Below, in pieces: positions 9,653 through 28,436 of a stretch of 64,000 nucleotides of DNA. Source of the stretch: Spirochaetota bacterium. GTDB lineage: Bacteria > Spirochaetota > UBA4802 > UBA5368. The position numbers and the translations under genes were made by a program. The stretch lies in NCBI GenBank assembly GCA_035477215.1, contig DATIKU010000034.1, forward strand, positions 70,037 through 134,036, in the 5' to 3' direction. Position 1 is the first letter of the stretch. The number at the start of each line of letters is the position of its first letter. The notes beneath the pieces were generated by a model. The model was given only the letters and a program-made list of their open reading frames with translations. It was not told where the DNA came from and searched no databases.

Positions 9653-9815
9653 GATTTGTAAAGGAGTTTTTTTGATTTAATATAATCATTGACATATATG
9701 GTCGTGGGAATAAAGAAAACTGTTTCGAGTTTTCGCTCCTGCGGCTGTTTCCATGGAACAAGACCACCAGAATTTATACAAGTTATCACCGGTCGATAAA
9801 AATAAAGGCGGGAGG

Positions 9816-12794
9816 ATGGTAATGTCCATAACCAGAAGGGATTTCCTCGGGCTGTCCGGCGTAACGGCGGCGGGGGCTTTCTTCGGCGGGGTATCGTTCC
9901 TCAGCGGATGCAAGTCCGCGCCGGACAAGCTGCAGGGGACTCGTGAAAGCACGACGATTTGCCCCTATTGCGGAGTCGGGTGCGGCCTTATTGTTTCCGC
10001 CAGGAATGGGAAAGTCGTCAATATCGAGGGTGATCCGGATCATCCTATAAACCAGGGTTCCCTCTGTTCGAAGGGCAGCGCGCTCTTCCAGATCTCCGAC
10101 AATCCAAGAAGACTGTCGAAGGTCCAGTACAGAAAGCCGTACGGCACGGAATGGGAGGAGATCTCCTGGGACCAGGCCGTCAAGATGATCGCGCGAAGGG
10201 TCAAAGACACCCGCGACGCGACCTTCATCGAAAAGGAAGGCGACGTTACGGTTAATCGCTGCGCGGGAATCGCGAGCCTGGGCGGTGCCGCGCTTGACAA
10301 CGAGGAGTGTTACACCCTCTCGAAATTCGCGAGGATGCTTGGAATAACCTACCTGGAGCATCAGGCTCGTATTTGACACAGCGCGACAGTCGCCGGTCTG
10401 GCGGCTTCCATCGGTCGTGGCGCGATGACCAATCACTGGAACGATATCAAGAATTCGGACGTCATCCTTATAATGGGGTCGAACGCCGCGGAAAACCACC
10501 CCATCTCATTCCGCTGGGTTCAGAAGGCCCAAGAGGAGCGCGGGGCGAAGCTCATCGTCGTCGATCCCCGTTTCACCAAATCGGCCTCGCTGGCGGATCT
10601 TTACGCACCGCTGCGTCCGGGCTCGGACCTGGCCTTCCTGGGCGGAGTTGTCAACTACGCCCTCGGGAATGAGCGGATTCAGAAGGAGTACGTTGTTGAA
10701 TATACCAACGCGGCGTACCTGATAAATCCCGAATTCAGGTTCAACGATGGCCTCTTCAGCGGTTATGACGGAAGCAAGAAGAGTTACGACAGCAAGACCT
10801 GGGCGTACCAGCTTGACGACAAGGGCATTCCGAAGCAGGACAGAACCCTCAAGGACCCCAATTGCGTCTACCAGCTCATGAAGAAGCATTATGCCCGCTA
10901 TACGCCGGAGAAGGTGGAGCAGTCGACCGGATGCCCGAAAGAGTCTTTCCTCAAGGTGGCCGAGCTCTTCACCTCCACGCACAAGCCCGACAGGGTGGCG
11001 ACCATCCTTTACGCCATGGGGACCACGCAGCACACCGTCGGGACGCAGAACGTGCGTATCTTCGCGATCCTGCAGCTCCTCCTGGGGAACATGGGCCTTG
11101 CGGGCGGCGGCATCAACGCGCTTCGGGGCGAGTCCAACGTGCAGGGTTCCACCGACGCCGGACTGCTCTGGCACATCCTGCCCGGCTATATTCCCGCGCC
11201 GGTCGCCAAAAAGCACCCCAATCTCGAAGCCTATATCAAGGCGACCACGCCCAAGACCAACGATCCGCGAAGCATCAACTGGTGGTCGAACAGGCCCAAG
11301 TATCTCATCAGCATGCTCAAGGCCTGGTACGGCGACGCCGCGACGAAAGAGAATGACTTCTGCTACGACTGGCTGCCCAAGGCGCACAAACCGGTCCCGT
11401 ATATCACGCTGTTCGAGGACCTGTACGCCGGCCGGCTTAAGGGGGCCATCTACATGGGGACCAACCCGATCGTCGGCGGGCCAAATTCCAACCGCACGGC
11501 GAAGGGTATGGAAAAGCTCGACTGGCTGGTGGCCGTGGACCTGTGGGAAACCGACTCCTCGATATTCTGGAAGCGTCCCGGCGCCAATGCCGCTCAGATA
11601 AAGACCGAGGTCTTTCTCCTTCCGGCGGCGGCGTCATTCGAGAAAGAGGGAAGCGTATCCAACTCGGGACGCTGGGCGCAATGGCGTTACAAGGCGCAGA
11701 ATCCTCCCGGCGTGGCCAAGAGCGACCTCGACATGATAGACCTGATTTACCGCGAGCTTAAGGGTCTCTACCAGAAGGAGGGCGGCAAGTTCGCCGATCC
11801 CATCCTCAAGCTCGTATGGAACTACACCGAGCCCGGCGAACACGAGGCCAGCCCGCATCTGGTTGCGAAGGAGATCAACGGATTCGATTACAAGACAAAA
11901 AAGCAGATGTCGACCTTCATGGACCTCAAGGATGACGGTTCGACCGCCTGCGGCAACTGGATTTACAACGCCAGCTACACCGAGAAGGGCAATATGATGG
12001 CCCGCCGCGGAGCCAGGGACGCCTCCAATAAGATTGGGATGTATCCGGAGTGGTCGTGGTGCTGGCCGCTTAACCGGCGCATCCTCTACAACCGTGCCGC
12101 CGTCAATCGCGAGGGAGAGCCCTGGGACAAGAACCGCTGGGTCGTCAAATGGACCGGCAGCGCATGGAAAGGAGACGTGGTGGACGGCGGGCCGAAGTTC
12201 GGTCCTGACGCCAAAAATCCATTTATAATGAACGCCGAAGGCGTGGGCAGGCTGTTCTCGAAGGACCTTGCCGACGGCCCGTTCCCCGAGCATTACGAGC
12301 CGATGGAAACGCTGACGGCGAACCTGTTTAACTCGCAGAAGCTCAACCCCGCCGTGCAAATACATGACACGCTGAAGGGCGATTTCAACGATGCGGCCCG
12401 CTATCCGTATATCGCCACCTCGTACCGCGTCGTGGAACACTGGCAGGCCGGCGCAATGACCCGCAACCTCCCGTGGCTCGCCGAGTTGGTTCCGGACATG
12501 TTCTGCGAAATCAGTCCATCGCTCGCGAAAGCTAAGGGTTTCAAACACGGCGACAAGGTTCGGATTTTCAACTCGCGCGGCGCCATCACGGCTTACGCGC
12601 TGGTGACCGAGAGAGTACAGCCGCTTAAAGTGCAGGGAAGGATGGTGGAGATGGTCGGTATGATCTGGCACTTCGGACACGGATGCGGTGTGTCCGGCGA
12701 CAGCTGTAATCAACTCACGCCGAGCATCGGGGACCCCAACACTGACATCCCCGAGTATAAGGCATTTCTGGTGGACATCAGGAAGGAGGCGTAA
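9816..12794 (+). CDS. fdnG: formate dehydrogenase catalytic subunit, selenocysteine-containing (in-frame TGA at 10374-10376 read as Sec), with Tat signal
   Basis: Twin-arginine signal TRRDFLGLSGV; the two track ORFs (9753-10376, 10425-12794) are in the same frame, split only by a TGA inside the conserved ...EHQARI-U-HSATVAGL... motif of FdnG/FdhA; GGAGG RBS before the ATG at 9816. Confidence 0.85.
10388..10406 (+). promoter_or_regulatory. SECIS-like hairpin 11 nt downstream of the Sec UGA of fdnG
   Basis: AGUCGCC-GGUCU-GGCGGCU, a 7-bp stem with a GGUCU loop at the spacing expected for bacterial SECIS elements. Confidence 0.45.
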
Positions 12795-14210: not shown

Positions 14211-15443
14211 ATGGAGTCGTTTGTTCAGGGGCTCTTCGCGGACAGGATCGGCGGAGCGCAGTTCGGTAAAGAAGACAAAATATACAAGTTCGAAAAGATA
14301 AAGCGCGCCAAGCGAGAGGCGGCAAGTAAAAATCCCGGGGTGAGTCTTATCGACCTGGGCGTCGGAGAGCCTGACGAGAAGGCTTTCGGCCTGGTTATCG
14401 AGGCGCTCCGCGGGGAAGCCGATAAACACGAGAACCGCGGCTATTCGGACAACGGCATCGATGAATTCAAGGCCGCCGCCGCGGGCTATCTGAAAAAGGT
14501 TTTCGGCGTTGACGGCATATCGCCCGAGCGTGAGATAAATCACTCAATCGGATCGAAGCCCGCCCTGGCGATGATGCCGGCGGCGTTCATCAATCCAGGA
14601 GACGTCACCCTCATGACGGTCCCCGGGTATCCCGTGGCGGGTACGCACACCCGGTGGTACGGAGGGCGGGTCTACGACATCCCGCTTAAAAAGGAAAACG
14701 GGTTCCTTCCCGACCTCGAGTCCGTTCCGGCCGAAATCAGGAAGCGCGCCAAGGTATTGGTAATCAACTATCCGAACAATCCCACCGGCGCCCGGGCGGG
14801 CGAATCGTTCTATAAAGAGGTGATAGAGTTCGCACTGAGGAACGGCGTTGTGGTGGTTCAGGATGCGGCCTACGCAGCGCTGACGTATAACGGCGACCCG
14901 CTGTCATTTCTGAGCGTTCCGGGGGCGAAAGAAGTCGGCGTCGAGATACATTCCCTGTCGAAGTCATACAACATGACCGGATGGAGGATGGCGTTTGTCG
15001 CGGGGAACGAAAAAATCGTGAAGGCCTTCGCCACTGTAAAGGACAATTACGATTCGGGCCAGTTCAAGGCAATTCAATGGGCGGCCATACGGGCGCTCGA
15101 GCACCCGGAGCTGACCGACCGCATCAAAACGAAATACGAGCGCCGCCTTGGGGGGCTGGTGCGCGTTCTTTCGGGTATAGGATTCAACGCCGAGATGCCC
15201 GGGGGGACCTTTTATCTGTATGTGCAGAGCCCGAGAGGCCTTAAAAACGGGATGGATTTCCCGACCGCGGAGGACTTTTCGCAGTATCTTATCAGGGAAA
15301 AACTGATATCCACCGTGCCGTGGGACGATGTGGGTCATTTTCTGCGCTTTTCGGCCACGTTCGAGGCACCCTCGGTCGAGAGTGAAGCGCTTATCTTACA
15401 AGAGATTGAAAAAAGATTTAGTGATTTACAACTGGTGTTCTGA
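14211..15443 (+). CDS. dapL: class I/II PLP-dependent aminotransferase, LL-diaminopimelate aminotransferase (DapL) candidate
   Basis: About 410 aa aminotransferase fold with NPTGA and SKSYNMTGWR PLP-lysine region; N-terminus resembles DapL. Confidence 0.55.
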   Translation: MESFVQGLFADRIGGAQFGKEDKIYKFEKIKRAKREAASKNPGVSLIDLGVGEPDEKAFGLVIEALRGEADKHENRGYSDNGIDEFKAAAAGYLKKVFGVDGISPEREINHSIGSKPALAMMPAAFINPGDVTLMTVPGYPVAGTHTRWYGGRVYDIPLKKENGFLPDLESVPAEIRKRAKVLVINYPNNPTGARAGESFYKEVIEFALRNGVVVVQDAAYAALTYNGDPLSFLSVPGAKEVGVEIHSLSKSYNMTGWRMAFVAGNEKIVKAFATVKDNYDSGQFKAIQWAAIRALEHPELTDRIKTKYERRLGGLVRVLSGIGFNAEMPGGTFYLYVQSPRGLKNGMDFPTAEDFSQYLIREKLISTVPWDDVGHFLRFSATFEAPSVESEALILQEIEKRFSDLQLVF

Positions 15444-15651
15444 CGCTCCGTATGGTAGGATTGTTATGTATCGGGATAAAAGGGACGCCATCCGCCCGGG
15501 GCGTGGGCGGGTCCGACGTTCCCGGCTATTGCGTAAATATCATGTATCAATAAACGGCCCTGCGACATGATGCAGGTATTCCGGAAATCCCGGTCGCACG
15601 GACGGGAAGGAGCCGGAATATCGAGCGTGTGAGCGGGTCGGGAGAGTCCGG

Positions 15652-17958
15652 TTGCTCGGCGGATTGACTGTTTCCAGAAAGACAATGATTATCGCGGGCC
15701 TCGCGATGGCGGCGCTTGCAGTTGCCGTGCTCGGCGTCCGCCTCCTGCTTAAAAGCGTCGGTTCGCTTGACGGTTCCTTCTCCGGGGCGGTCGGCGACAG
15801 GGTCGAAATTCTGCGGGATGGAAGAGGCACGCCGATGATAAAGGCCGAAAACTGGGGCGATGCCTGTTTCGCGCTCGGCTATATCCACGCGCAGGACCGC
15901 CTGGTCATGATAGAGTATTACAGGGCGCTGGCGAGAGGGCGCATACAGGAGCTTTTCGAAAACGACGCCGGTCTCATGGACAGGCTTGCCGCGGTTATGG
16001 GATTTCACCGCCGCGCGGGCGAAATCCTGGCCAGGCTTAAATCGCCGCACCGTGAATACCTCGATGCCTATGCCGCCGGCGTCAATTTAATGAAAGACAG
16101 AAAGTACCGGGAGGTCGTCCGTTTCTCGCGGTTGCCGGACGATCCCTGGACGGCCCGGGACGTTATCGCCATACTGCTCCTGGTGGACTGGTCACAGGCC
16201 TTTCTCGCCAATCGGGAGCTCCGCTTCGCGCTTCCCGACAGACTGAGGACCTATCCCATACGCGATATCATACCCGAGGATATGCTGTACTGGTATTCCG
16301 ACGCCGAACAGAAAAATGTTTTCGCGCTCAGGGAGCTTAAAAACGCGGTGAGCGATTTCGTGGGCTCGTTCTCTTCGGGTTTCGCCTGCCTGGTCCCGAC
16401 CTCGCTGACGCACGACGGCAGTGCGCGAATCATCTTCAATCTCGATGTTCCCCTGCGCCTTTATCCTTCGTGGTACCCCGTGTGTTTTCGCGTGGCCGAC
16501 GGCGAGCTTGATGGAGTCAGTTTTTCGGGGATGCCTTTCGTTTTTACCGGCAGGAACCCATCCATGGCCTTTTCGTCGTTTACGATGAAAGCCGATACCC
16601 AGGACTTCCACATCGAAACGACACGAAAGCAGAAGGATTCGGAGCAGTACCTCGGGGCGTTCGGCTGGCGCGATTTCGAAGTGACGGAGGGGGCGACCGT
16701 TCCGGGCGTGGCCGCCCCCGTGCGCTCCACCGAGCGAGGGCCCGTTGTCAGCGATATCTTCGCGGGGATGTATCGGACCGATTGCATTACCGTTCGCTCG
16801 CTGTTTCCCGGTGAGGATTATATAGCAGCCCTTTTCGACGTGCCGCTCGCCGTTTCGCCCGCCGCGGCGCGTATGCGCCTTGCCAATGTTACGTCCCCTC
16901 CAAGGGCCTATCTCTTTTCGTCCGGGGAGTACGCCCTGCGCGGCTTCTCGGGAAAAATTCCCTTGCGTCTTCAGAAAGCGGGTTTATCCAAAAACCAGGT
17001 GTTCAATCCGATCTGGACGGGCGTTGCCGACATTTCGAATTACTTCGAGGCCGCGGGGCGTGATGTTTCTCTGATCGGCGGTTCGATCGCCGAGGGAGTT
17101 CCCCCTGCTATGCGGGACAGCCTGCAGTATGACGAGGAAGAAAGGACGGCAAGAATCCGAGATCTGTCCGGGGCGGGTGGAGTGCTCGACATCGCGGCCC
17201 TGCAGCGGGCGCTTCGCGACACCTATTCCATCTCCGCGGCGAAATTCGTACCGCTTTTTATACGGCTGCTCGAGAAGATACCGGTGACATCCGCCCGTCT
17301 TACGAGGATATACTTCATGGACTGGGACTACCGTATGCGTAAGGATTCGGTCGCCGCAACCATTTACCAGACGCTCGTGATAAAGCTCGTTCAAGAGACG
17401 ATGGGGGATGAGTGCAAAAACGAGATTTCCGGAATCCTCGAACACCATCACCATTTTTCCGATAGCTTTCTGAAGGCGATTGAGGAAGAAAAGTCGATTC
17501 TCTTCGACGACATAACGACGAGCACCCGCGAGGAGCGTCGGGACGATATTTTCGACAGGGCATTTCTCAGGTCCATGCGCTACCTCAATGACAGGCTCGG
17601 TCCGATAATGGAAAACTGGACGTGGGGAAGCCTTCACACCGGTCATTTTTCGGTTCCCCTCATCGACGAAAGCGCGTTCTGGTCGCGCCTTTTCCATGGC
17701 AGGATGGATGAGCCCTTCGAGGGCGGGTTCGCCACGGTTTATCGCGGGACGTCGCTACCCCTGGAGAATTTTAAGGCGGATGTGACAAGCTGTCTTTCCG
17801 GCATATACGACACTACGGCGGGGACTTACTCCGCATCGTACAGCTATTCGCTCAATCCCTTTTCGGATTACTTCGACTACAGGATGGAATACGGTAACTT
17901 CGCGGCCTTCAGACCGGACGACACCCGCCATCGCATTGAGATACGTCCGATGAAGTGA
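15652..17958 (+). CDS. penicillin acylase family (Ntn hydrolase) protein
   Basis: N-terminal TM/signal, then VEILRDGRGTPMIKAENWGDACFALGYIHAQDRL..., the penicillin amidase signature. Confidence 0.8.
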   Translation: MLGGLTVSRKTMIIAGLAMAALAVAVLGVRLLLKSVGSLDGSFSGAVGDRVEILRDGRGTPMIKAENWGDACFALGYIHAQDRLVMIEYYRALARGRIQELFENDAGLMDRLAAVMGFHRRAGEILARLKSPHREYLDAYAAGVNLMKDRKYREVVRFSRLPDDPWTARDVIAILLLVDWSQAFLANRELRFALPDRLRTYPIRDIIPEDMLYWYSDAEQKNVFALRELKNAVSDFVGSFSSGFACLVPTSLTHDGSARIIFNLDVPLRLYPSWYPVCFRVADGELDGVSFSGMPFVFTGRNPSMAFSSFTMKADTQDFHIETTRKQKDSEQYLGAFGWRDFEVTEGATVPGVAAPVRSTERGPVVSDIFAGMYRTDCITVRSLFPGEDYIAALFDVPLAVSPAAARMRLANVTSPPRAYLFSSGEYALRGFSGKIPLRLQKAGLSKNQVFNPIWTGVADISNYFEAAGRDVSLIGGSIAEGVPPAMRDSLQYDEEERTARIRDLSGAGGVLDIAALQRALRDTYSISAAKFVPLFIRLLEKIPVTSARLTRIYFMDWDYRMRKDSVAATIYQTLVIKLVQETMGDECKNEISGILEHHHHFSDSFLKAIEEEKSILFDDITTSTREERRDDIFDRAFLRSMRYLNDRLGPIMENWTWGSLHTGHFSVPLIDESAFWSRLFHGRMDEPFEGGFATVYRGTSLPLENFKADVTSCLSGIYDTTAGTYSASYSYSLNPFSDYFDYRMEYGNFAAFRPDDTRHRIEIRPMK

Positions 17959-18104: not shown

Positions 18105-21100
18105 ATGATGCATCCCCGGCGCTTATTTGCACGAAAAAGATCCAAAAGTAGTTTTCAACCGGAGGCAGCCGGCCCGAATGCAGAAGGTCCGGCGGCCGGA
18201 AAATTTTATCGCGTCTTTCCGCTTGCGGCCGTTTTCCTGCTGTGTGCGGGCGCGGTTTTCGCCGCCGATCCGCTGATTATGAACGGTAATTTTTCCGGGA
18301 GTCATTTAAACGGGCACCTTGAGTATTTTCTGGACGAAGATGGAGGGCTCGATATCTCGGCCATCGCCGCGCCCGGCTTCCCCTTCCGCGCGGCGCCGAC
18401 ATTGACTGGCAGCCCGAGTTTCGGCTACAGCCGCGGCGCGCTGTGGCTGCGGTTCCTTGTTAATAATCCCTCGCCCTCTCCGGTGGAATGGTATCTCGAA
18501 TACAATTACCCCATCACCGACCAGGTCGAGCTTTTCATTCCCGAGGGATTTGGATTTCGGCGAACCGAGGCCGGCGATCGAAAACCCTTCGCACAGCGCC
18601 CTGTCGAATATCGCTCGCCGGTGTTTCCGATTATACAGAAAAGCGGCACGTCCGCTTATTATCTGCGCGTACGAAGCCAGGGTTCCCTTACCGTGCCGCT
18701 CGTCGCATGGCTCCCCAAAGCGTTCGAAAAAATGAAGGCCGCTGAAATGCTGCTCCTTGGCATCTATTACGGTATAATGCTCGGGCTGACGCTGTATCAT
18801 GTGTTCCTTTTCATTTCAGTCCGGGAGCGGAGCTATCTGTACCTGCTCCTTTTCATTATCGGGGTGGCCGTTTTTACCATGGTGCACAATGGGCTGGGTT
18901 TTCAGTATCTCTGGCCCGAGAGCGTGCGATGGCAGAACCGGGCTCATCCATTTTTGATGTTTTTCCTGAACGCTGTCGTTCTTCAGTTCGCGCGGCTTTT
19001 TCTTTCAACACGGGAAAGGATGCCGCGTCTTGATGTGCCGGTGCGTGTACTGGCCGCTGCGAACCTGTCCGTGCTTGCCGTCCCTTTTATACTTGAGTAT
19101 TATTACGCGACACAGATTTCGGTAATCATGTCGGGTCTTTCGGGTTCGATGCTCATAATAACCGGGGCCGTGGGGTTCTTTCTTCGCCTGCGCGAGGCGC
19201 GCTTTTTCCTGACGGCCTGCCTGTGTTTTCTGGTCGGTGTATTGCTCATGGTGTTGCGCGCGTATGGCGTGCTGCCGGAGAATCCGATAACGGCGTGGAC
19301 CTACCAGATCGGTTCGTCGGTGATGATTCTATTATTTTCACTGGGCGTTGCCGACAAAATCAACATCATGCGCGGCGAACGCGAACGGGCGCTGAACAGC
19401 CTCGCCGAGTCGGAAGAAAAGTACCGCACGCTGGTGGAAAACGCGCGCGACGGGATCGTTTTGCTGGCAGACGAAAAACCGTTATATGCCAATCCTTCGC
19501 TTATCTCCATGCTCGGTTATACGGAGCGCGAATTTTATGAAAAGACCATTGTCGATTTCCTTCCGGACGACCCTCAGGGCAGGGACCTCGTGCTGCCCCG
19601 GCATCACGAGAGGATGCGCGGAATCGATCTGCCATCAAATTATGAGGCCCGGCTTCTGGCCGGGGATGGGAGGCTGCTGGACGTGATCATCTCGGCCTCG
19701 CGCATCCGGATGGGCGGCGATAATGTGATCATCGCGATCATCAGCGATGTCTCGCACCTGAAAAAGGCCGAAAACACAATTCACCGGCAATACCGGGAGA
19801 TCCATGCACAGTACGAGGAGGTGGAATCCCTCAACCGGGAACTCATGCGCACGCATAACGAGCTTGTGGACCTCAACGAGCGGCTTGCCAGGGAAAAGGA
19901 GCAGCTTGCGGCGACGCTGGTGTCCATCGGTGACGGTGTGATCGCAACCGATACGGAAGGCCGGATCGTGATGCTCAACCACGCGGCGGAACGCCTCACG
20001 GGCTGGCCGCAGGCGGAGGCCGAGGGCCGCCCGGTCGGCGAGCTGTTTAATCTCGCGGGGGGGCAGGTAAATAATCAAAGAATAAGCGGGACTGTTTCCG
20101 AGGTTACCCGTAGAGGCGGCCTGGAAATAAGCGACGTTCCGCTGGAGCTTGTCAACAGGAAAGGCGACGAACGGATAGTGGAGATGTCCGGCTCGCCGGT
20201 CCGGACCGCGGACGGGAAAACGCTCGGGGCGGTGCTCGCCGTACGGGACATCACCGAAAAGCACAAGCTGGAAAAAGAGCTCGCCAAGATCGGAAAGATC
20301 GAATCGCTCGGGCTGCTCGCAGGTGGGATCGCGCACGATTTCAATAATCTGCTTACCTCTATAATCGGCAACCTTTCGCTGGCGAAAATAGAGGCGGCCG
20401 GAAACAGCGCATGTTCCGAGATCCTTGACAGGATCGAAAGCGTTTCGCAGCGGGCGGTGAATCTGACAAGGCAGCTCCTCACCTTTTCCAGGGGTGGTGA
20501 TCCCATTAAAAAGACCGCCTCGATAGTGAAACTTTTGGAAGAGACTGTGTCTTTTCTCCTGGCCGGATCGAACGTCAGGAGCCATTTTTTCGTGGAGGGT
20601 GACATACCATCGGTCGACATCGATCCTGACCAGATCAGCCGGGTGCTGCACAACCTTATAATAAACACCGTGCAGGCCATGCCCGGCGGTGGCAATATTT
20701 CAATACGGGTGCAGAACGTCCCGGATGTACGCTGGCTGCCGCTTTCGGCCGGCCGTTATGTTAAAATATCAATTTCGGACGAGGGCGTGGGCATACCCCG
20801 GAAGCATCTCGGCAGGATTTTCGATCCATATTTCACGACCAAGGAATATGGCAGCGGGCTCGGCCTCGCCATCACTTTTTCCATCATCAAAAAGCATGGC
20901 GGGCACATCGACGTCGAGTCGAATGAAGGAGTCGGATCGACATTCAATGTGTATCTGCGCGCCTCGGAAATCGACGGCATTCCGGCGGAGGCGACGCCTG
21001 CATCGATGGCGCCCCGTCGGCGCGCGGGAAGGATCATGGTGATGGACGATGAGGAATGCATTCTCGACCTCGCGGTGAACATGCTGGGAAATTTCGGTTA

Positions 21101-21419
21101 TGAGGTAACGGTCGTTCGCAACGGAGGCGAGGCCCTCCAGTCCTATCGTCGCGCGATGGAGGAGGGGAAAAGGTTCGATGCCGTGATTATGGACCTCACC
21201 ATCCCCGGAGGAATGGGAGGGCGCGAGGCACTGGTGAAACTTAAAAGCGTTGATCCGGACGTGGTTGCGATCGTTTCGAGCGGATATTCAAACGACCCGG
21301 TCATGGCCAATTTCCGGGCGCACGGGTTCCGCGGTGTACTCGCGAAACCCTATACAATCGAGGACATGATACAGGCTATCGACGAGGTCACATCACCGGA
21401 AGGCGGCACGGCCGCCTGA
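18105..21419 (+). CDS. hybrid sensor histidine kinase: 7TMR-DISM periplasmic and 7TM domains, PAS domains, HisKA, HATPase_c and C-terminal receiver
   Basis: Signal peptide plus periplasmic domain, 7 predicted TM helices, PAS regions, H-box HDFNNLL, G-boxes, then a REC domain (MVMDDEE...DLTIPGGMGG). Confidence 0.85.
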   Translation: MMHPRRLFARKRSKSSFQPEAAGPNAEGPAAGKFYRVFPLAAVFLLCAGAVFAADPLIMNGNFSGSHLNGHLEYFLDEDGGLDISAIAAPGFPFRAAPTLTGSPSFGYSRGALWLRFLVNNPSPSPVEWYLEYNYPITDQVELFIPEGFGFRRTEAGDRKPFAQRPVEYRSPVFPIIQKSGTSAYYLRVRSQGSLTVPLVAWLPKAFEKMKAAEMLLLGIYYGIMLGLTLYHVFLFISVRERSYLYLLLFIIGVAVFTMVHNGLGFQYLWPESVRWQNRAHPFLMFFLNAVVLQFARLFLSTRERMPRLDVPVRVLAAANLSVLAVPFILEYYYATQISVIMSGLSGSMLIITGAVGFFLRLREARFFLTACLCFLVGVLLMVLRAYGVLPENPITAWTYQIGSSVMILLFSLGVADKINIMRGERERALNSLAESEEKYRTLVENARDGIVLLADEKPLYANPSLISMLGYTEREFYEKTIVDFLPDDPQGRDLVLPRHHERMRGIDLPSNYEARLLAGDGRLLDVIISASRIRMGGDNVIIAIISDVSHLKKAENTIHRQYREIHAQYEEVESLNRELMRTHNELVDLNERLAREKEQLAATLVSIGDGVIATDTEGRIVMLNHAAERLTGWPQAEAEGRPVGELFNLAGGQVNNQRISGTVSEVTRRGGLEISDVPLELVNRKGDERIVEMSGSPVRTADGKTLGAVLAVRDITEKHKLEKELAKIGKIESLGLLAGGIAHDFNNLLTSIIGNLSLAKIEAAGNSACSEILDRIESVSQRAVNLTRQLLTFSRGGDPIKKTASIVKLLEETVSFLLAGSNVRSHFFVEGDIPSVDIDPDQISRVLHNLIINTVQAMPGGGNISIRVQNVPDVRWLPLSAGRYVKISISDEGVGIPRKHLGRIFDPYFTTKEYGSGLGLAITFSIIKKHGGHIDVESNEGVGSTFNVYLRASEIDGIPAEATPASMAPRRRAGRIMVMDDEECILDLAVNMLGNFGYEVTVVRNGGEALQSYRRAMEEGKRFDAVIMDLTIPGGMGGREALVKLKSVDPDVVAIVSSGYSNDPVMANFRAHGFRGVLAKPYTIEDMIQAIDEVTSPEGGTAA

Positions 21420-21460
21420 AGAGAGCGGTCGCGCCGGGTTGGGCCGCGTTCCCGAACGGT

Positions 21461-22084
21461 TTATTGACGCGCCGTATCTTTCCCAAGCGCGAATGCGCGC
21501 CTGTTCGTTTCGAAATCGGAAAATTGTTCGCGGACCACCGCCAGGATCGATTCGTCCGATACCGGCAGGTCGCCGAGCGCGCTTGCCATGCCGAGCGCGA
21601 TTGTGTTGACCTGTCGCAGTGCATTGAAATGGCTTCTGGACAGCTCGTCGATCGGGAATAGATGGACATTCGGGGTGAATTCCCGAAGGCGCGCCTGGAT
21701 CGTTTCGAGCGGTGGGTACGCGCACTCTCCCATGCGCACGGATACCGGCGTGAGCGGGAAATCGTTGACGATGACGACAGACCGCTCGTTCAGGTAGCGC
21801 GCATGCCTGAGCGCTTCCATGGGCTCCATGGAAATCATCATATCGGCCCCTCCGGTCGGGATGAGCCCCGAGGCGGCCATACGGCGCTCGTCGGGCGTTT
21901 CGCCGCTTTCGGGCTTCCTGTATCGGACGTTGCTCGTCACGATACCCTCCCGCTGCGCGCCGCCGCGGCGCTCCGCCCCGACAACATCGAGCCCTTCGTG
22001 GATGGCGGCGAGTTTCAGCACGGTGCCGAGCGAAATGGCGCCCTGCCCCCCGATTCCGCAGATGAGGATGTCGTAAGCGATCAT
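21461..22084 (-). CDS. iorB: indolepyruvate ferredoxin oxidoreductase subunit beta
   Basis: MIAYDILICGIGGQG... is the IorB N-terminus; ATGA overlap with the iorA stop; start refined inside a longer track ORF. Confidence 0.8.
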   Translation of the reverse strand: MIAYDILICGIGGQGAISLGTVLKLAAIHEGLDVVGAERRGGAQREGIVTSNVRYRKPESGETPDERRMAASGLIPTGGADMMISMEPMEALRHARYLNERSVVIVNDFPLTPVSVRMGECAYPPLETIQARLREFTPNVHLFPIDELSRSHFNALRQVNTIALGMASALGDLPVSDESILAVVREQFSDFETNRRAFALGKDTARQ

Positions 22085-24000
22085 ACGGCCTCCACCCCGG
22101 CCGTCAGCCGCCGTATCTCCGTGCGTAAAATCGCCGAGTTGAGGCAGAGATCGTGGCACGCCCCGCAGCGCAGACAGTTCGCTTCCTCGATATAGTACCG
22201 CCACTTGCCGGTCGTTTCCTCTTTTCTGATGGCGGGACAGCCGAATTCGACGTAGCATTCGTTGCACTTCTGGCACCGCTCATCGTCTATCTGATAATAG
22301 ATCTCGTACTCTCCCGAATCGCGCGCGATCCGGCGGCCGTATTGGAGGGCGCATTCCTCCTCAGCGATTATGACGCGCACCCCTTTTCCCGCGCGGATCG
22401 CTTCCTTAACGGCGGCCAGGGAGGCCTTGATATTGAAGGGTTTGATGGTGCGCACATATGATACTCCGATCGATTTAAGCATGCCCTTCATGTCCACCGG
22501 ACGCATCTTCGTGCCGTCGAGCGCCGTGTCGGTGGTGGGGCTGGGCTGGTGCCCGGTCATGGCCACCCATTTATTGTCGAGGATGATGAGCACGAGGCTC
22601 GCGTTTTGCTGCACGGCGTTGATGAGTCCGGGAATGCCCGAATGGAAAAACGTGGAGTCGCCAACGTAGGCGATCACGTTCTCGCCTTCGATTTTCTGGA
22701 GCATGCCCTGGGCGATGCCGACGCCGCAGTTCATGCAGGTAACCCAGTCGAACGCGCGGAAAGGCGGCAGACAGGACAGGGTGTAACAGCCGATGTCGCC
22801 CGCGAAAACGGTCTTGCGGTCCGTGGCCTTGACGATTGAATAGAGCGTGGCGCGGTGCGGACAGCCGGTACAGAAGGCCCCCTGTCTGGGAGGCAGGTCG
22901 CCGGTGAGTTTTTTCGAAAGTTCGATCGCACGCGTCGTACGCTTCGGCAGCGGCGCGCGAAGCTCTTGCGAAAGGCTTTCGGCGATGAGATCGACGTCGA
23001 GCTCTCCATGTGCCGGGAAAACGTCTTTGCCGATTATGGGCACGCGGACGCCCGCGTCGTACAGCAGGCGCTTTGCCTGGAACTCGATAAAGCCCTCCAG
23101 ATCCTCGACCACATATATGCGGTCGAGATGCTTCGTGAAGGATGCTATCTCTTCCGGATTGAGTGGATAGCTCATGGCTATCTTGAGTATGGGCGCGTCG
23201 GTGATGCCGAGGAGGGAAAGCGCTTCCAGAAGGTAGAGATAATTGACGCTCGACGAAATGAAACCGGTTCGGCCGTAACCCGAAAGCGCCCTGTTGAGCC
23301 CGAGCGACGGGATCTCACCCTGAAGCCGTTTGACGGCCTCCATGGCGCGGCGGTGGTTTGCGACCGAGCCGGCGAACAGGTTAATATAACGCTCCGGGTT
23401 TCTATCGAAACGGCCTTTTGTGGGAAAGGCGTCTGGCAGTTTTCCGAGACGGAGCGAGCCGATATTATGGCAGAGTTTCGACGGCGCGTTGACGATGACC
23501 GGAAGGTTGTAGGTTTCGCTCAATTCAAAGGCGCGCGCGGTGTAGTCTTTGGCCTCCTGGATCGACGCGGGCTCGAGAATCGGGAGATGCGTGTGGAGCG
23601 AATACCACCGGTCGTCCTGTTCGCTTGTGGAGCTTGTGGCGCCGGGATCGGAGCCGATGACCACGACGAAACCAGCGCCGACGCCGGTGTAGCCGGCGAA
23701 GTGCAGCACCTCGGCCGCCACGTTCATGCCCACGTGCTTCATGGTGACCATTGAGCGAATGCCGGCCCAGCTTGCCCCCTGAGCGCCGTGCGCGGCGACA
23801 TGCTCGTTGACGCTGAACTCGGCATGGATGCCGGGAAACTCCTTCTCAAGCGACCGGTATCCTTCCCCGATCTCCGAGGCGGGGGTCCCCGGATAGGTGC
23901 TGAAATAGCCGAGCGCCGCTTCGAGTCCACCGCGGACTATCGCGTCGTTTCCCATGGCGAGGATGGTTCTGCCGGGTTCGTTAAGCGCGAGCGGATTCAT
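22081..24000 (-). CDS. iorA: indolepyruvate ferredoxin oxidoreductase subunit alpha (TPP-binding, two 4Fe-4S)
   Basis: ILAMGNDAIVRGGLEAA...TYPGTPASEI N-terminus, TPP motif GDSTFFHSG, C-terminal CxxCxxCxxxC clusters. Confidence 0.85.
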   Translation of the reverse strand: MNPLALNEPGRTILAMGNDAIVRGGLEAALGYFSTYPGTPASEIGEGYRSLEKEFPGIHAEFSVNEHVAAHGAQGASWAGIRSMVTMKHVGMNVAAEVLHFAGYTGVGAGFVVVIGSDPGATSSTSEQDDRWYSLHTHLPILEPASIQEAKDYTARAFELSETYNLPVIVNAPSKLCHNIGSLRLGKLPDAFPTKGRFDRNPERYINLFAGSVANHRRAMEAVKRLQGEIPSLGLNRALSGYGRTGFISSSVNYLYLLEALSLLGITDAPILKIAMSYPLNPEEIASFTKHLDRIYVVEDLEGFIEFQAKRLLYDAGVRVPIIGKDVFPAHGELDVDLIAESLSQELRAPLPKRTTRAIELSKKLTGDLPPRQGAFCTGCPHRATLYSIVKATDRKTVFAGDIGCYTLSCLPPFRAFDWVTCMNCGVGIAQGMLQKIEGENVIAYVGDSTFFHSGIPGLINAVQQNASLVLIILDNKWVAMTGHQPSPTTDTALDGTKMRPVDMKGMLKSIGVSYVRTIKPFNIKASLAAVKEAIRAGKGVRVIIAEEECALQYGRRIARDSGEYEIYYQIDDERCQKCNECYVEFGCPAIRKEETTGKWRYYIEEANCLRCGACHDLCLNSAILRTEIRRLTAGVEAV

Positions 24001-24002
24001 GA

Positions 24003-24542
24003 TTACGCAATCGGTTCTATCAACAGGGATTTTTGCTCAAGGGCCGGCATGATGGCGCTATCCAGCGCGATAAAATCGGCGCCCTCGTCAAGATAGTGGC
24101 GGGCGCGGCGTTCGGCGGCACCGTCGCCCGCGGCCGAGCGGACGATGATGATAAACGACGAGGGAATCGTCCCTTCACTCTTCAGTTTCAGGGCGAGTTT
24201 AAGCATCTGCGCGGGGTCGAGATCGTAGACGGGCTTCGCCATGCCCGCACCGGCGTCGAAAAGCCCGGAGGCGAGGACTGCGCCGTCAAAGCCGCAGATG
24301 GACGATGAGACGAGTCCCGAGTGTACGAGGTCGCGGTTCTTATTTTTTGAGACAATTTCGATGAACATCGGTCCCGTGAACGCTTTGCCGATGTGTCCGG
24401 CGATTGCCAGCGGGCTGATCCGGCCGTATTCGCCCAGCAGTATTCCCGAACCCGCCGGCACCTTCGCGCACGAAGCGGCGGCCGATTCGATCGATTCAAT
24501 CGACGCGATGTACGCCAGCCTGGTGATTACGGGCGCTCCCAT
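24003..24542 (-). CDS. hypothetical 179-aa protein, translationally coupled to the MetV-like gene
   Basis: ATG at 24542 preceded by GGGAGG-N5; overlaps the MetV-like stop; the upstream part of the 363-aa track ORF is Arg-rich out-of-frame noise; no recognised family. Confidence 0.5.
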   Translation of the reverse strand: MGAPVITRLAYIASIESIESAAASCAKVPAGSGILLGEYGRISPLAIAGHIGKAFTGPMFIEIVSKNKNRDLVHSGLVSSSICGFDGAVLASGLFDAGAGMAKPVYDLDPAQMLKLALKLKSEGTIPSSFIIIVRSAAGDGAAERRARHYLDEGADFIALDSAIMPALEQKSLLIEPIA

Positions 24543-25171
24543 ATAACCTCCCGCGGGGAATGGCATTTTGACCAGTCGACCGGCCCGTGATAGGCGGTAA
24601 AACGGTCGAGTTCGCCGCTCTCCTCGAGGCGCCGGTAAATGGTGTGCCAGACGCAGTCCCGGTCTTCGTATACTTCGCAGCGCGTACCCTTTATGCCCTC
24701 GCACGGGCCGTTGCGCACTCCCTTGGGGCACAGGGTGACGGGGCAGAGCATGGAGGTCTCGTTGAGAATGCATTCGCCGCAGTGTGAGCAGCGCTCGTAA
24801 AAACGCCCCAATCGTTCGACCATCCCCGCGAAATCCGTGTCGAGGGCGGCGACCACCCGCTTGCCGGTCACTTCGGCGATGGCCTGCACGCCACCTCCGC
24901 AGGCAAGCGCAATGAGCGCGTCGGCGCCGGAGAGTTCCTCTTCGATACGCCTGAAATCGCGCGCCGAGATGCGTTTGTCGCAGGGAGACTCTATGGAGAT
25001 GGTCGCGAGCACCTCGCGGTCGGCGAACATCTCCATCATCTCCTTGACCTGTTCCGAGCCCCCGGTGCGGCAGACCGCGGCGCACTCGGAGCAACCGACG
25101 ATGATTATTTTCCGTGCGTCGGAGGCGTACTTCTTTACGATTCCGGGGTCCTTTTTATGGGTGACAATCAT
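24527..25171 (-). CDS. MetV-like protein (methylene-THF reductase C-terminal zinc-ribbon domain family)
   Basis: CPKGVRNGPCEG motif plus additional Cys clusters (CSEC, CSHCGEC) typical of the MTHFR_C/MetV domain; 214 aa. Confidence 0.6.
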   Translation of the reverse strand: MIVTHKKDPGIVKKYASDARKIIIVGCSECAAVCRTGGSEQVKEMMEMFADREVLATISIESPCDKRISARDFRRIEEELSGADALIALACGGGVQAIAEVTGKRVVAALDTDFAGMVERLGRFYERCSHCGECILNETSMLCPVTLCPKGVRNGPCEGIKGTRCEVYEDRDCVWHTIYRRLEESGELDRFTAYHGPVDWSKCHSPREVIWERP

Positions 25172-25383
25172 AACGCACTCTCCGGGATTGCTGGAAGGCG
25201 CGGATTTTTTCCGCGTCCTCCACTATTTACGGGTGCCGGATTAAAATCAATAGTTTTTCAGATCGGGCGGCCTTTCAGGCCGGACGGATGCGGCCGCCCG
25301 GTCCGAAAGGCGCGGCATTCGGCTTGACTTCGGTGTTCGAATCATTTAGGAAAACCGATGATTGGGCGGGAGGAAAGCGACAA

Positions 25384-26195
25384 ATGAAAATCACCACGCT
25401 TAACTGCAACGGCCTGCGCTCCGCCGTGGAGAAGGGCTTTTTCGACTGGCTGCACACGGAAGGGCCGGACGTGTTGTGCCTGCAGGAGACGCGGCTTTCC
25501 AACGAATTTCGGAAAACAGGGCGTTTCACCCCGAGGGCTACCACTGTTATTTCAACAATGCCGACAAAAAGGGCTACAGCGGGGTCGCTATTTTCTCCAA
25601 AACCGAGCCGGATGGCCTGATCGTCGGAGATGGCTGGGCAACGATGGCCGATGAGGCCCGCTATATCGAGGCGCGTTTCGGTAAACTCAGCGTGGTTTCG
25701 CTCTACCTTCCATCGGGCTCGAGCGGGCCAAAGCGGCAGGAGGTAAAATTCGATTTCTTAAACCGCTTCATGGATCAACTGCGCTCGATGCGCCGCTCGC
25801 GGCGCGAGTACGTGCTGTGCGGCGACTGGAACATCGCCCATAAAAACATCGATATAAAAAACTGGCGGTCGAACCAGAAGAACTCGGGCTTTCTTCCCGA
25901 GGAGCGCGCCTGGATGGACGAGCTTTTCGGGCCCGCCGGCTTTGTCGACGCTTTTCGCGTTGTCAACCAGGAGGCCGACGAGTATACTTGGTGGTCGCAC
26001 CGCGGCCGTGCCCGCGAAAAGAACGTCGGATGGCGGATCGATTACCAGGTGGTTACCCACGGCCTCAGGGAGAAGGTGGTTTCGGCCTCGATTTACAGGA
26101 ACAAGCGCTTCTCGGACCATGCGCCGCTTACCATGGTGTACGACATGGAACTTCCGCGCTCTTCCCCCTCTCAAGCCGCTTGTCGAGCTCACTGA
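25384..26195 (+). pseudogene. xth: exodeoxyribonuclease III (xth) interrupted by a -1 frameshift at an A4 run (about 25513-25516); pseudogene or homopolymer sequencing error
   Basis: N-terminus MKITTLNCNGLRS...CLQETRLS in one frame (track ORF 25288-25620); remainder ...FHPEGYHCYFNNADKKGYSGVAIF...SDHAPL in the -1 frame (ORF 25476-26195); one extra A restores a contiguous Xth. Confidence 0.6.
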
Positions 26196-26456
26196 CGGCT
26201 TTCCGGAATTCGTGGCGAGTATGTTGTTTTCGGGACCCCTCCGATATCCTTCCGATAAAAACGGGCGTTTCAGATGAAGGCCTGGACACCCCGCCGACAG
26301 GGACCGGATGGTTTCAGATAAAAAAATACTGGATTATTCCATAAGCCACGGCGTATAATTCGAGGCGGCCGATTGCGGCGCGCATTTCCTCCGGTCCGCT
26401 TCGCGGATCGGTCTGCGCCGCCGAAATACGGCATTCCGTAAGAGGGGGGCCTTATC

Positions 26457-28436
26457 GTGCTGAAACGATCAGACATGAAGGTTCGTATTCGGCGTTTGGC
26501 GCTTGGAGTTATGCTGTGCTGTGCGCTCGCGCAGGCGCCGGCGGACCTTCGGGCCGCCGACTGGCCCATCTACAAGGGAAACATCTATTTTACCGGTAAT
26601 AACGATGAGATCGTCGTTAATAACAATAATCTCAAGTGGCTATTCGAATCTCCGGGCACGGTGTTTAACCCGGTCGTTTCCGACGGGAAAGTATATTTCC
26701 TCGACATTAAGAAAAACGTCTACTGTCTCGACGAAGAGGAGGGGAAACTCCTGTGGAGACTGGACCTGCTCCAGACGTCCGCCCAGTTCAACCCGACCCG
26801 CCGCCCCGCGGGCAAGGTAAAGTATCCCCTGGTGAAGGGAGATACCCTGTTCGTTTCGGACTCCTATGCGATCTACGCGATAGATAAGAACAGCGGCGCG
26901 GTGCGCTGGGCCCGTACAGGCATGCCCGAGGAGCACTATGGCAAAACCTCCGGGGCCATGGTCGACGGTATTTACTCCGACCCATTCGTATCCGACGACG
27001 CAATTTTGTACGGAACCAGGAACGTATTCATGTCGCGCGAGTTGAAGAATGGCAGATCCGTCTGGAGCAACAGCGCGATCGGAAGCTACAGCGGCTTTCC
27101 CACGTTTTACGACCGCTACGTGCTGACCCAGTCCATGGATTTCAGCAAGGACCGCTATTCGGTCTTCTGCCTGTTTGCCGACAGCGGAAAAATAAAATGG
27201 GAAACCGTAATTGAAAAGCCGCCGGTCATTTACCCGCCGGTGGTATACAAGGGGAATGTGTATATCGCCTCCGGCGCAAAAATCTATTGCCTGTCCCTCG
27301 AGGGCGGTCGGGTGCTGTGGTCCAGGGAATACGGCGACCTTATAACGTCCAACCCCGGCTTTACCGAGCGCGAAATCCTCTTCTCGGTCGGTAACAGGAG
27401 GATCGTATCGGTCGATCCGGCCGATGGCGGGGTGCTCAACGATATCGATTTCGGTGAGCGGACCGGTCCGTATTTTGTGACGATACGCGACCAGATATAC
27501 ATAGCGCATTCCATCCAGCGGAACGTGGGCGGGCGCGATCTGCCCTTCACCTCCCTCAAGGCCATTCGGTTTTCGAACAACGAGAAGCTGTGGGAGTTCG
27601 TCTCGCCGTTTCCGGGCGCGCCGTCTCAGCCCGTAGCCTCCAGGGGTATCATGCTTCTTCCCGCGGGCAACTATCTCTATGCCGTCGGCACCGAGTACTA
27701 CCCGCGCACCGTAAAGGGAGGGAGCGGTTATTACAAACCGGGGAGTGAAAAGCCGGTGACCGATACCGCGCTGCGCCCCGAAGTGAAGGAGGAACCTCTC
27801 GAGCCGGTAAAGCGAGAGCCCGAGAAAACGCTCCCCCTTCGAACCATGAAACTCTCCGTGTCCGATGAGGGAGACAAACCGACCGGCGCCAGGGTGAGCG
27901 TGAAAAAGCGGGAAAAGGACCGGCTGGTGTATTCAAAAGAAGTTACGGTGAGTAAGCCCGGCGAGATAATCGAGGTTCCCGACACCGACGGCGTAGAGGT
28001 GATGGCGAATTCGGACGGATTTATCCCCAAAAAAATCGTCGTAAACCGCGGCGACGACGAACGCTCGATCAAACTGGAGAGGATAGAGCAGGGCAAAACC
28101 ATCGTGATGGACAGCATCTACTTCGAGATCGACCGGGCCTATCTGAAAAAAGAATCGCTCGACGTGCTCGACAGGGTCGCCGCCATTTTAAAGAAAAATC
28201 CCTCGATGAAGATCGAGGTGAGGGGGCATACCGATTCCACCGGGGAGAGAGCCCACAACCAGCGGCTTTCGGAGCGGCGCGCCGACGCGGTCGCCGAGTA
28301 TATGATCAAGAACGGCATAAGCCCGGAGCGCCTTTCCGCGGTGGGTTTCGGGGCCGATAAGCCGATTGCGAGCAACGCGAACGAAGATGGGCGGAAGAAG
28401 AACAGGCGCACGGAGTTGTTCATCATCCGAAAATAA
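26457..28436 (+). CDS. secreted PQQ-like beta-propeller repeat protein with C-terminal OmpA-family peptidoglycan-binding domain
   Basis: Signal peptide, BamB/PQQ-like repeats (GKVYFLD...NVYCLD...GKLLW), C-terminal OmpA_C motif (RGHTDSTG...NQRLSERRADAV...NRRTE). Confidence 0.8.
   Translation: MLKRSDMKVRIRRLALGVMLCCALAQAPADLRAADWPIYKGNIYFTGNNDEIVVNNNNLKWLFESPGTVFNPVVSDGKVYFLDIKKNVYCLDEEEGKLLWRLDLLQTSAQFNPTRRPAGKVKYPLVKGDTLFVSDSYAIYAIDKNSGAVRWARTGMPEEHYGKTSGAMVDGIYSDPFVSDDAILYGTRNVFMSRELKNGRSVWSNSAIGSYSGFPTFYDRYVLTQSMDFSKDRYSVFCLFADSGKIKWETVIEKPPVIYPPVVYKGNVYIASGAKIYCLSLEGGRVLWSREYGDLITSNPGFTEREILFSVGNRRIVSVDPADGGVLNDIDFGERTGPYFVTIRDQIYIAHSIQRNVGGRDLPFTSLKAIRFSNNEKLWEFVSPFPGAPSQPVASRGIMLLPAGNYLYAVGTEYYPRTVKGGSGYYKPGSEKPVTDTALRPEVKEEPLEPVKREPEKTLPLRTMKLSVSDEGDKPTGARVSVKKREKDRLVYSKEVTVSKPGEIIEVPDTDGVEVMANSDGFIPKKIVVNRGDDERSIKLERIEQGKTIVMDSIYFEIDRAYLKKESLDVLDRVAAILKKNPSMKIEVRGHTDSTGERAHNQRLSERRADAVAEYMIKNGISPERLSAVGFGADKPIASNANEDGRKKNRRTELFIIRK

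Follow-up and report, generated by a model that had tools for sequence, protein, structure and literature searches.

Organization of the locus

The window analysed here, a 64,000-nucleotide (nt) stretch of contig DATIKU010000034.1 from a Spirochaetota bacterium, contains a locus of four genes that all lie on the minus strand. They encode a MetV-like protein of 214 amino acids (aa), a 179-aa protein that we call mini-MetF, and an IorA-like and an IorB-like protein of the indolepyruvate:ferredoxin oxidoreductase (IOR) type. In the coordinates of the whole window, the features of the locus are as follows (MTHFR, methylenetetrahydrofolate reductase; TPP, thiamine pyrophosphate):

24527..25171, minus strand: metV-like gene, 214 aa; N-terminal cysteine-bearing alpha/beta domain and C-terminal cysteine-rich MTHFR_C/zinc-ribbon domain
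24003..24542, minus strand: mini-MetF gene, 179 aa; divergent, shortened (beta/alpha) barrel of the MTHFR family, 7 strands
22081..24000, minus strand: iorA-like gene, 639 aa; fused POR_N and TPP_enzyme_C domains and a C-terminal 2x[4Fe-4S] ferredoxin domain; MetV-linked subclade
21461..22084, minus strand: iorB-like gene, 207 aa; PF01558 domain of the POR gamma type
24527..24552, minus strand: translational-coupling junction, read from the sequence; GGGAGG (24552-24547), TTAT and the ATG at 24542, within the final 16+ nt of metV
25172..25383, no strand assigned: intergenic region between metV and a divergent ExoIII-like gene; possible promoter region of the operon

The ATG start codon of mini-MetF at 24542, as read from the sequence, creates a 16-nt overlap with the end of metV and is preceded by a ribosome-binding site, GGGAGG, and the 4-nt spacer TTAT. 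An earlier note on this DNA had described the overlap with a spacer of five nucleotides; the overlap stands, but the spacer has four. The same two frames also overlap in homologous loci. The TAA stop codon of mini-MetF is followed after a 2-nt gap by the ATG of the iorA-like gene, whose stop codon in turn overlaps the iorB start codon in the sequence ATGA, in agreement with the statement of the note that the 179-aa gene abuts iorA-iorB in the same orientation. Together with the synteny described below, these overlapping and abutting frames support the view that the four genes form one functional unit, in which the first two genes would be wired to an IorAB-type oxidoreductase, as had been proposed.

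Two longer open reading frames (ORFs) were rejected. A TTG-started ORF of 363 aa (24003-25094, minus strand) holds the 179-aa gene in frame, its 5' extension being a GC-rich artefact that overlaps metV in another frame; the true start of mini-MetF at 24542 is fixed by its orthologues. The 271-aa iorB ORF returned by the ORF finder is over-extended upstream; the start of the 207-aa frame was read from the sequence. On the iorB side, a convergent sensor-kinase gene lies 41 nt beyond the end of the operon, and on the other side the region 25172..25383 is presumed to be the promoter region of the four-gene operon. No sigma-70 consensus was found in the latter region. An Rfam search of 20800-26500 revealed no riboswitch; its single match (mir-4018, E 0.36) is attributed to chance.

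The MetV protein

The 214-aa protein contains LCPKGVRNGPCEG and matches PF12225 (DUF5981, methylene-tetrahydrofolate reductase C-terminal) with an E-value of 9.3e-32 and a score of 109 bits, above the gathering cutoff of 23. The match spans residues 108-201 of the protein and positions 2-95 of the 95-position profile. The protein is thus a genuine MetV, and the earlier assignment of this ORF to the MetV/MTHFR C-terminal domain is confirmed. All 13 cysteines of MetV are present (C27, C30, C34, C64, C91, C128, C131, C134, C143, C148, C157, C165 and C173), and they are invariant or nearly so among 56 MetV homologues. They are arranged as an N-terminal CxxCxxxC motif with two single cysteines and a C-terminal CxxCxxC...C...C...C...C...C pattern. 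The AlphaFold2 (AF2) model of the protein has a mean predicted local distance difference test (pLDDT) score of 90.6. No solved structure of a MetV homologue was found, nor one of an IOR, for comparison.

The MetV of the window is predicted to carry iron-sulfur (FeS) clusters and a zinc site. Characterized MetVs are zinc/FeS proteins with two predicted [4Fe-4S] clusters, and MetVF enzymes take electrons from reduced ferredoxin, while the MetFs of the MetV type are reported to have lost the use of NADH (PMC9430772). A separate clade of MetVs without an adjoining MetF-like gene was observed in three loci (L074, 1879-3536; L089, 7001-8655; L096, 5795-7430), where the next genes are an IscU/NifU-like gene and one that resembles a 5-formyltetrahydrofolate cyclo-ligase gene when its N-terminal sequence is inspected by eye. 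Consequently, MetV is not always paired with a MetF barrel.

A shortened MetF-like protein

The 179-aa protein matches no Pfam or NCBIfam family, even at E-values up to 1, and no PDB sequence; a profile search of the PDB with its family returned only TIM-barrel noise (E about 0.3). In a word-indexed search, 5.8 billion proteins yielded no more than 15 clusters (142-184 aa, 40-100% identity), and the alignment of this mini-MetF family has 22 invariant columns. When family alignments were compared using hhalign, the mini family matched an alignment of 20 MetFs including that of Escherichia coli with a probability of 99.1% (E 5e-19); the aligned columns, 38-158, are equivalent to residues of about 69-183 in E. 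coli MetF. The MetF of an archaeal iorAB-metVF cluster was matched with a probability of 95% (E 2e-8). The protein had earlier been considered an unknown partner of MetV; this holds for direct searches of Pfam, NCBIfam and PDB sequences, but the profile alignments are decisive in showing it to be a truncated, divergent homologue of MetF.

The profile of the mini family also reaches PF02219 proteins. Run exhaustively with HMMER against 1.84 billion representatives, it gave 12 core members of 81-185 aa (most of 169-185), then four intermediates of 222-243 aa and finally about 110 weaker matches of varied length. Of ten such matches compared with Pfam, the six that exceed 250 aa all score above the PF02219 threshold, whereas two of the four intermediates fall just under it and the other two have no match. 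The motifs KNKNRD, GFDGxxLASG and AKPVYDLDP of mini-MetF are the counterparts of CRDRNR, GIxNxLxxxGD and AKPVFDLDS of the MetV-type MetFs.

The AF2 model of the 179-aa protein alone, a prediction that the earlier note had suggested, has a pLDDT of 86.5 and shows a barrel of 7 strands with 6 helices. About 110 residues of E. coli MetF (184-296) are replaced by about 20, and the C-terminal third of the barrel is gone, so that the protein lacks the complete (beta/alpha)8 barrel of about 280-320 aa that defines MetF. One member of the mini family had been labelled 5,10-methylenetetrahydrofolate reductase by its source. Since the 179-aa protein is homologous to MTHFR yet does not have its defining features, it should not be annotated as such.

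Loss of residues required for folate chemistry

In the E. coli enzyme, Glu28 is the catalytic acid, and its replacement in E28Q leaves approximately 0.002-0.01% of the activity; Asp120 hydrogen-bonds N3 and the NH2 group of the pterin, and D120N retains 0.3% of kcat; Gln183 binds the pterin at N1 and NH8, and its variants raise the Km for folate more than 250-fold; Phe223 stacks on the substrate (PMC11094777, PMC3156243). Gln183 affects the binding of NADH as well as that of folate in related reductases (PMC11094777). We tabulated these positions, in E. coli numbering, in the MetF-like proteins adjoining MetV in more than 100 loci, aligned to the MetF profile.

In MetV-adjacent MetFs without iorAB, Glu28, Gly119-Asp120 and Gln183 are kept in all scorable proteins (about 50, some sequences being cut by contig ends). 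By contrast, all 27 iorAB-linked MetF-like proteins tabulated lack both Asp120 and Gln183, and the residue following the invariant Gly is non-acidic (L, R, A, V, G, I or K). This holds for the forms of 175-184 aa, for those of 213-251 aa and for full-length archaeal MetFs, as well as for additional representatives retrieved by the profile search. In the mini family, the Asp120 position is occupied by L (in the window) or L/R/A/V/I/K, that of Gln183 by D or a variable residue, and that of Glu28 by A or a variable residue, so that no equivalent of Glu28 exists in the mini form; the Phe223 region is wholly deleted.

The loss of the folate-binding and catalytic residues and of the last third of the barrel suggests that mini-MetF does not reduce methylene-tetrahydrofolate (methylene-THF), and the mini-MetF/MetV pair is therefore most probably not a methylene-THF reductase. 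The earlier remark that the 179-aa protein is too short to be MetF is borne out insofar as it is not a working one. Across loci, identity to the proteins of the window is 38-74% for the MetF-like subunit, compared with 63-95% for MetV, 74-94% for IorA and 68-91% for IorB. Such fast evolution of the MetF-like subunit fits a relaxed, non-catalytic role. The ORF is nevertheless intact in every locus, a sign of relaxed constraint on mini-MetF but not of decay.

The IorAB-type core

The IorA-like protein combines POR_N, TPP_enzyme_C and a 2x[4Fe-4S] domain in one chain, with the cysteine motifs CxxCxxCx5CP and CxxCxxCxxxC as read from the sequence, and the IorB-like protein carries a PF01558 domain (E 3e-25); this is the architecture of IorAB. 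The best NCBIfam model for IorA is TIGR03336 (IOR_alpha), at 572.6 bits and below the equivalog cutoff of 650.9. IorB similarly scores 129.8 against a cutoff of 205.8 and 135.5 against a cutoff of 238 with the IOR_beta models (including TIGR03334). These scores under the equivalog cutoffs indicate that the pair belongs to a divergent subclade of the IOR family. The IorA of the window is 43-91% identical to other MetV-linked IorAs and 33-35% identical to canonical ones. All MetV-linked IorAs, the archaeal ones included, have an N-terminal extension and an insertion of 10-15 residues ahead of the ferredoxin domain that are absent from canonical IorAs; those of Bacteria also have a C-terminal tail, which neither the archaeal MetV-linked nor the canonical IorAs possess.

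A class I/II aminotransferase is encoded at a distance of about 6 kb from the operon in the window, and of a few kb in locus L004, a position weakly consistent with amino-acid catabolism. In the window, this gene and one of the penicillin-amidase family (14211-17958, plus strand) are about 3.5-6 kb off, with the sensor-kinase gene between; in L004 the same pair (9272-12555) forms the two nearest downstream genes. This proximity may reflect a recurrent link to amino-acid or amide catabolism.

Distribution and conservation of the four-gene unit

All source sequences of the four-gene unit come from metagenome-assembled genomes (MAGs) or metagenomes, and the genomic contexts of the IorA clade are a sample. 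At every mini-MetF relative with a readable contig, MetV, mini-MetF, IorA and IorB are encoded on one strand, and the flanks differ. The gene order is shared by the loci in which MetV is at least 63% identical (the window, L001-L011, L013-L019, L021 and L022). A scan of GTDB species genomes with MetV returned seven loci, all from MAGs of Spirochaetota or 'uncultured Leptospirales', with the same order in all seven. A metagenome scan with the MetV alignment returned 80 loci, of which the closest two (65-82% identity) have the four-gene order; among the MetVs at 47% identity or less, two (L030, which resembles L012) adjoin iorAB, and the rest are accompanied by a full-length MetF or stand alone.

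Searches with IorA extended the family beyond the spirochaetes. Its nearest non-spirochaete relatives, at 50-59% identity in pairwise alignments (48-59% in the table of search matches), are found in Deferrisomatales, two 'Deltaproteobacteria' MAGs and Abyssubacteria. All four of these relatives examined are encoded with a PF12225 protein, a protein of 213-251 aa without a Pfam match, and IorB; the middle proteins are MetF-derived too. For 15 further pairs of MetV and IorA matches, the longest contigs of the two members are identical in length, so that each pair presumably lies on one contig. In an Asgard-like contig (L012), for which the source name of MetV is Atabeyarchaeia, the order is iorA-iorB-metV-metF, with a MetF of 302 aa. 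This contig carries two more MetF-family paralogues within a few kb of iorAB-metVF: one of 285 aa (8977-9834, minus strand) with a weak MetF-profile match and aberrant key residues, and a PF02219 gene (10456-10648, minus strand) that is cut by the end of the locus.

None of three canonical iorAB loci used as controls (Monoglobus, Selenomonas and Peptoclostridium) has MetV or MetF. A phenylacetate-CoA ligase gene lies downstream in two of the three and next to none of the MetV-linked loci examined. The 187-aa protein encoded upstream of Monoglobus iorA was considered as a hidden mini-MetF and rejected, as it is membrane-like and has no match. The survey of iorAB neighbourhoods that had been suggested thus gave the four-gene order in all MetV-linked bacterial relatives examined. 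As the same genes occur in the same order at every related locus while the flanks differ, the arrangement is not due to chance. No description of a MetV/IorAB linkage or of truncated MetFs was found in full-text literature searches, in line with the earlier impression of an unfamiliar arrangement; however, it is not peculiar to this genome but recurs widely as a module. Its MetF-like partner measures 175-251 aa in several bacterial phyla, and in an Asgard-like archaeal contig it has full length but has lost key residues to an equal extent.

In a rough neighbour-joining tree based on distances, the IOR-linked MetVs of Bacteria fall into a single clade, separate from the MetF-linked ones, whereas the archaeal iorAB-linked MetV groups with archaeal MetF-linked MetVs. 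We considered whether the archaeal and bacterial associations arose independently. The grouping in this tree favours such a scenario, and the insertions common to archaeal and bacterial MetV-linked IorAs suggest, on the contrary, a common ancestry.

Among the flanking genes, a hybrid sensor kinase (7TMR-DISM/PAS/HisKA/HATPase/receiver; 18105-21419, plus strand) is convergent with iorB in the window. The same kind of kinase is found downstream of the operon in L001, L002 and L010, and a PAS hybrid kinase upstream of it in L005. The ExoIII-like gene (PF03372; 25384-26195, plus strand), divergent from the operon, is split over two frames, of which one aligns with residues 1-41 of the intact 281-aa orthologue from L001 and the other with its residues 42-269. 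A frameshift must therefore lie near 25500-25515, either an assembly error of the MAG or the mark of a pseudogene.

Proposed function and alternative explanations

The best reading of these sequence data is that the MetV/mini-MetF pair has an accessory electron-transfer role. We propose, with a probability of roughly 0.6, that the locus encodes a four-subunit enzyme of the IOR type in which a vestigial MetF holds MetV, the latter serving as a dedicated module for electron transfer. The catalytic core is a TPP-dependent 2-oxoacid:acceptor oxidoreductase of the IorAB type, which would convert a 2-oxoacid (an aryl-pyruvate or another) and coenzyme A (CoA) into acyl-CoA, CO2 and two electrons, and the two extra subunits would have been recruited from a MetFV methylene-THF reductase. 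MetV, the better conserved of the pair, would partner the [4Fe-4S] ferredoxin domain of IorA and replace or supplement free ferredoxin. It could dock on this domain via, or together with, the relic barrel, as acceptor of the electrons or as their donor in reductive carboxylation. The main reason for retaining the relic MetF would be that MetV depends on the core of its barrel. The motifs kept by the relic (RD/KN-x-NR, the Gly of the 'GD' loop, AKPVYDLD and GAD) are exactly those common to MetV-type MetFs but absent from the MetV-less E. coli enzyme; they probably form the surface for MetV docking, and possibly a flavin site.

Several points weigh against this proposal. Co-transcription of the four genes, formation of the complex and the direction and route of electron transfer are what we infer from the data, and the scan for sigma-70 promoters and terminators found nothing marking the ends of the operon, so that the transcript is not delimited. 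The 2-oxoacid substrate is uncertain, as both IorA and IorB score under the NCBIfam equivalog cutoffs. In addition, the polar invariant residues E38/Y39, E62, S92/G93 and R135 of mini-MetF are modelled at or near the C-terminal ends of barrel strands, and the protein may still bind a ligand or a flavin and carry out some chemistry of its own. The protein keeps strands beta2-beta6 as well as the loops of Y39 and Y106, and the residues near the expected isoalloxazine site differ between subgroups: the positions near flavin N5/N1 vary among mini, mid-length and archaeal forms and speak clearly neither for nor against a flavin.

A related scenario, which we regard as possible but doubtful, is that the relic MetF still binds flavin mononucleotide and that MetV and the flavin together convert between one- and two-electron transfer, with NAD(P)+/NAD(P)H, a quinone or a disulfide as the partner; the enzyme would then be of a ferredoxin-independent 2-oxoacid:NAD(P)+ type, or bifurcating. 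The retained strands beta2-beta6 are compatible with this, because in the MTHFR barrel they presumably carry most contacts to the flavin adenine dinucleotide. Moreover, GEYG of mini-MetF aligns with the TYG(A) loop and KPVYDLD with PEMYASD of E. coli MetF, conserved polar residues are modelled at or near the C-terminal barrel ends, and KorABC, PadEFGHI and the pyruvate:NADP+ oxidoreductase fusions provide precedents. However, the His88/Gln position varies by subgroup (E, P, K, A, C/S), as does the residue preceding the conserved Gly; Gln183 is absent and the Phe223 region deleted; and the fast evolution of the subunit fits a scaffold better than a cofactor site. The reported loss of NADH use by MetV-type MetFs (PMC9430772) also argues against it.

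It appears less probable still that MetV and mini-MetF assemble, stabilize or regulate this clade of IorAB, for example by delivering FeS clusters or protecting it from oxygen. In favour of this, the relic subunit evolves fast, stand-alone MetV homologues elsewhere adjoin IscU/NifU-like genes, and the electron transfer proposed above has no acceptor that can be named. Yet MetV retains the full cysteine pattern of redox-active MetVs and is as conserved as IorA; the overlapping and abutting frames suggest that translation is coupled, as it is for proteins that assemble into one complex, and the MetV-linked IorAs carry their own insertions around the ferredoxin domain.

We consider it very improbable that the pair is a working reductase of the MetVF type placed beside iorAB, so that ferredoxin reduced by the IOR feeds methyl-group synthesis. 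MetVF enzymes do accept electrons from reduced ferredoxin, and IOR was detected by mass spectrometry as an occasional, inconsistent contaminant of purified Sporomusa ovata MetFV (PMC9430772), which may be a coincidence or a hint of an affinity between IOR and MetFV; the 179-aa partner is also homologous to MetF, and carries the reductase label in one family member. But about 110 barrel residues are missing and PF02219 is not matched; other residues occupy the positions of Asp120 and Gln183, the stretch around Phe223 is gone and there is no conserved Glu28, whereas all scorable MetV-linked MetFs without iorAB keep Glu28, Asp120 and Gln183, and in E. coli the D120N, E28Q and Gln183 variants are nearly inactive or raised in Km more than 250-fold (PMC11094777). 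Finally, chance adjacency, or a decaying fragment of a metF pseudogene, might be suspected from a short protein without a Pfam match that lies within the long spurious ORF 24003..25094 in GC-rich DNA, but the comparative data effectively rule this out: every orthologous locus keeps an intact ORF of 175-184 aa (identity down to 38%, 22 invariant columns), the junction has a ribosome-binding site and a recurrent overlap with metV, the AF2 model is confident (pLDDT 86.5), and the four-gene order is kept across phyla.

A more far-reaching reading, which we regard as unlikely on balance, would be a previously unrecognised, widespread class of four-subunit 2-oxoacid oxidoreductases (in Spirochaetota, Desulfobacterota-type bacteria, Abyssubacteria and Asgard-like Archaea) that captured MetV and MetF from C1 metabolism and stripped the barrel stepwise (302, 251, 228, 213 and 179 aa). 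A flavin might have been kept in the process, giving access to a new acceptor or donor, e.g. in NAD(P)-linked or bifurcating oxidation or synthesis of 2-oxoacids in place of plain ferredoxin reduction.

Significance

The 2-oxoacid:ferredoxin oxidoreductases are central to the anaerobic fermentation of amino acids and to reductive carboxylation, and the routing of their low-potential electrons sets the energy that is conserved. If our proposal is true, a clade of IorAB with its own MetV-based partner would represent a new solution to electron routing, as well as the first role assigned to MetV beyond the reduction of methylene-THF. Which donor supplies MetVF enzymes with electrons in the cell is itself still debated. 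A MetF subunit shrunk to a non-catalytic core would provide a clear example of such reduction. At present, annotations call the short proteins and the adjoining MetV either 'hypothetical' or '5,10-methylenetetrahydrofolate reductase', and the latter label could falsely imply a Wood-Ljungdahl or methionine-cycle capacity in reconstructions from MAGs.

Comparison with known systems

The first two genes resemble those of the MetVF (type II) reductase of acetogens (PMC9430772) in the PF12225 domain and cysteine pattern of MetV, in the position of metV directly upstream of, and translationally coupled to, a gene of the MetF family, and in the motifs RDxNR, AKPV[YF]DLD and GAD that mini-MetF retains; the use of low-potential electrons from reduced ferredoxin is a further feature of those enzymes. 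Unlike in that reductase, the partner of MetV has 179 aa instead of about 290-320, lacks Glu28, Asp120, Gln183 and the Phe223 region, and falls under the PF02219 threshold, and the operon partner is iorAB and not Wood-Ljungdahl, hdr or rnfC2 genes.

Among IorABs, those of Pyrococcus and Methanococcus have been studied biochemically. With the canonical IorABs of Monoglobus, Selenomonas and Peptoclostridium, the locus shares the two-gene core, the POR_N/TPP_enzyme_C/2x[4Fe-4S] organization of IorA and the PF01558 domain of IorB, and IOR_alpha and IOR_beta are its best NCBIfam models. It differs from them by an IorA identity of 33-35%, sub-cutoff scores, insertions of its own and the two extra upstream genes.

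The Asgard-like (Atabeyarchaeia-type) cluster of L012 and L030 is closer: the same four families are encoded on one strand, IorA is 43% identical and has the N-terminal extension and the pre-ferredoxin insertion, and MetF is without Asp120 and Gln183. In the archaeal cluster, however, iorAB comes first, and the MetF, of 302 aa, scores above the PF02219 threshold and retains the Glu28 position.

Oxidoreductases of this class with added electron-transfer or flavoprotein subunits are represented by the 2-oxoglutarate:NADP+ oxidoreductase KorABC, the phenylglyoxylate:NAD+ oxidoreductase PadEFGHI and the pyruvate:NADP+ fusion enzyme. Like these, the system described here would combine a TPP/FeS core with an electron-output module of its own. 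The addition of such a module is therefore a known principle; what differs is its origin, as it derives from MetV and MetF and not from a flavoprotein of the ferredoxin:NAD(P)+ reductase type, and has no recognisable nucleotide-binding site.

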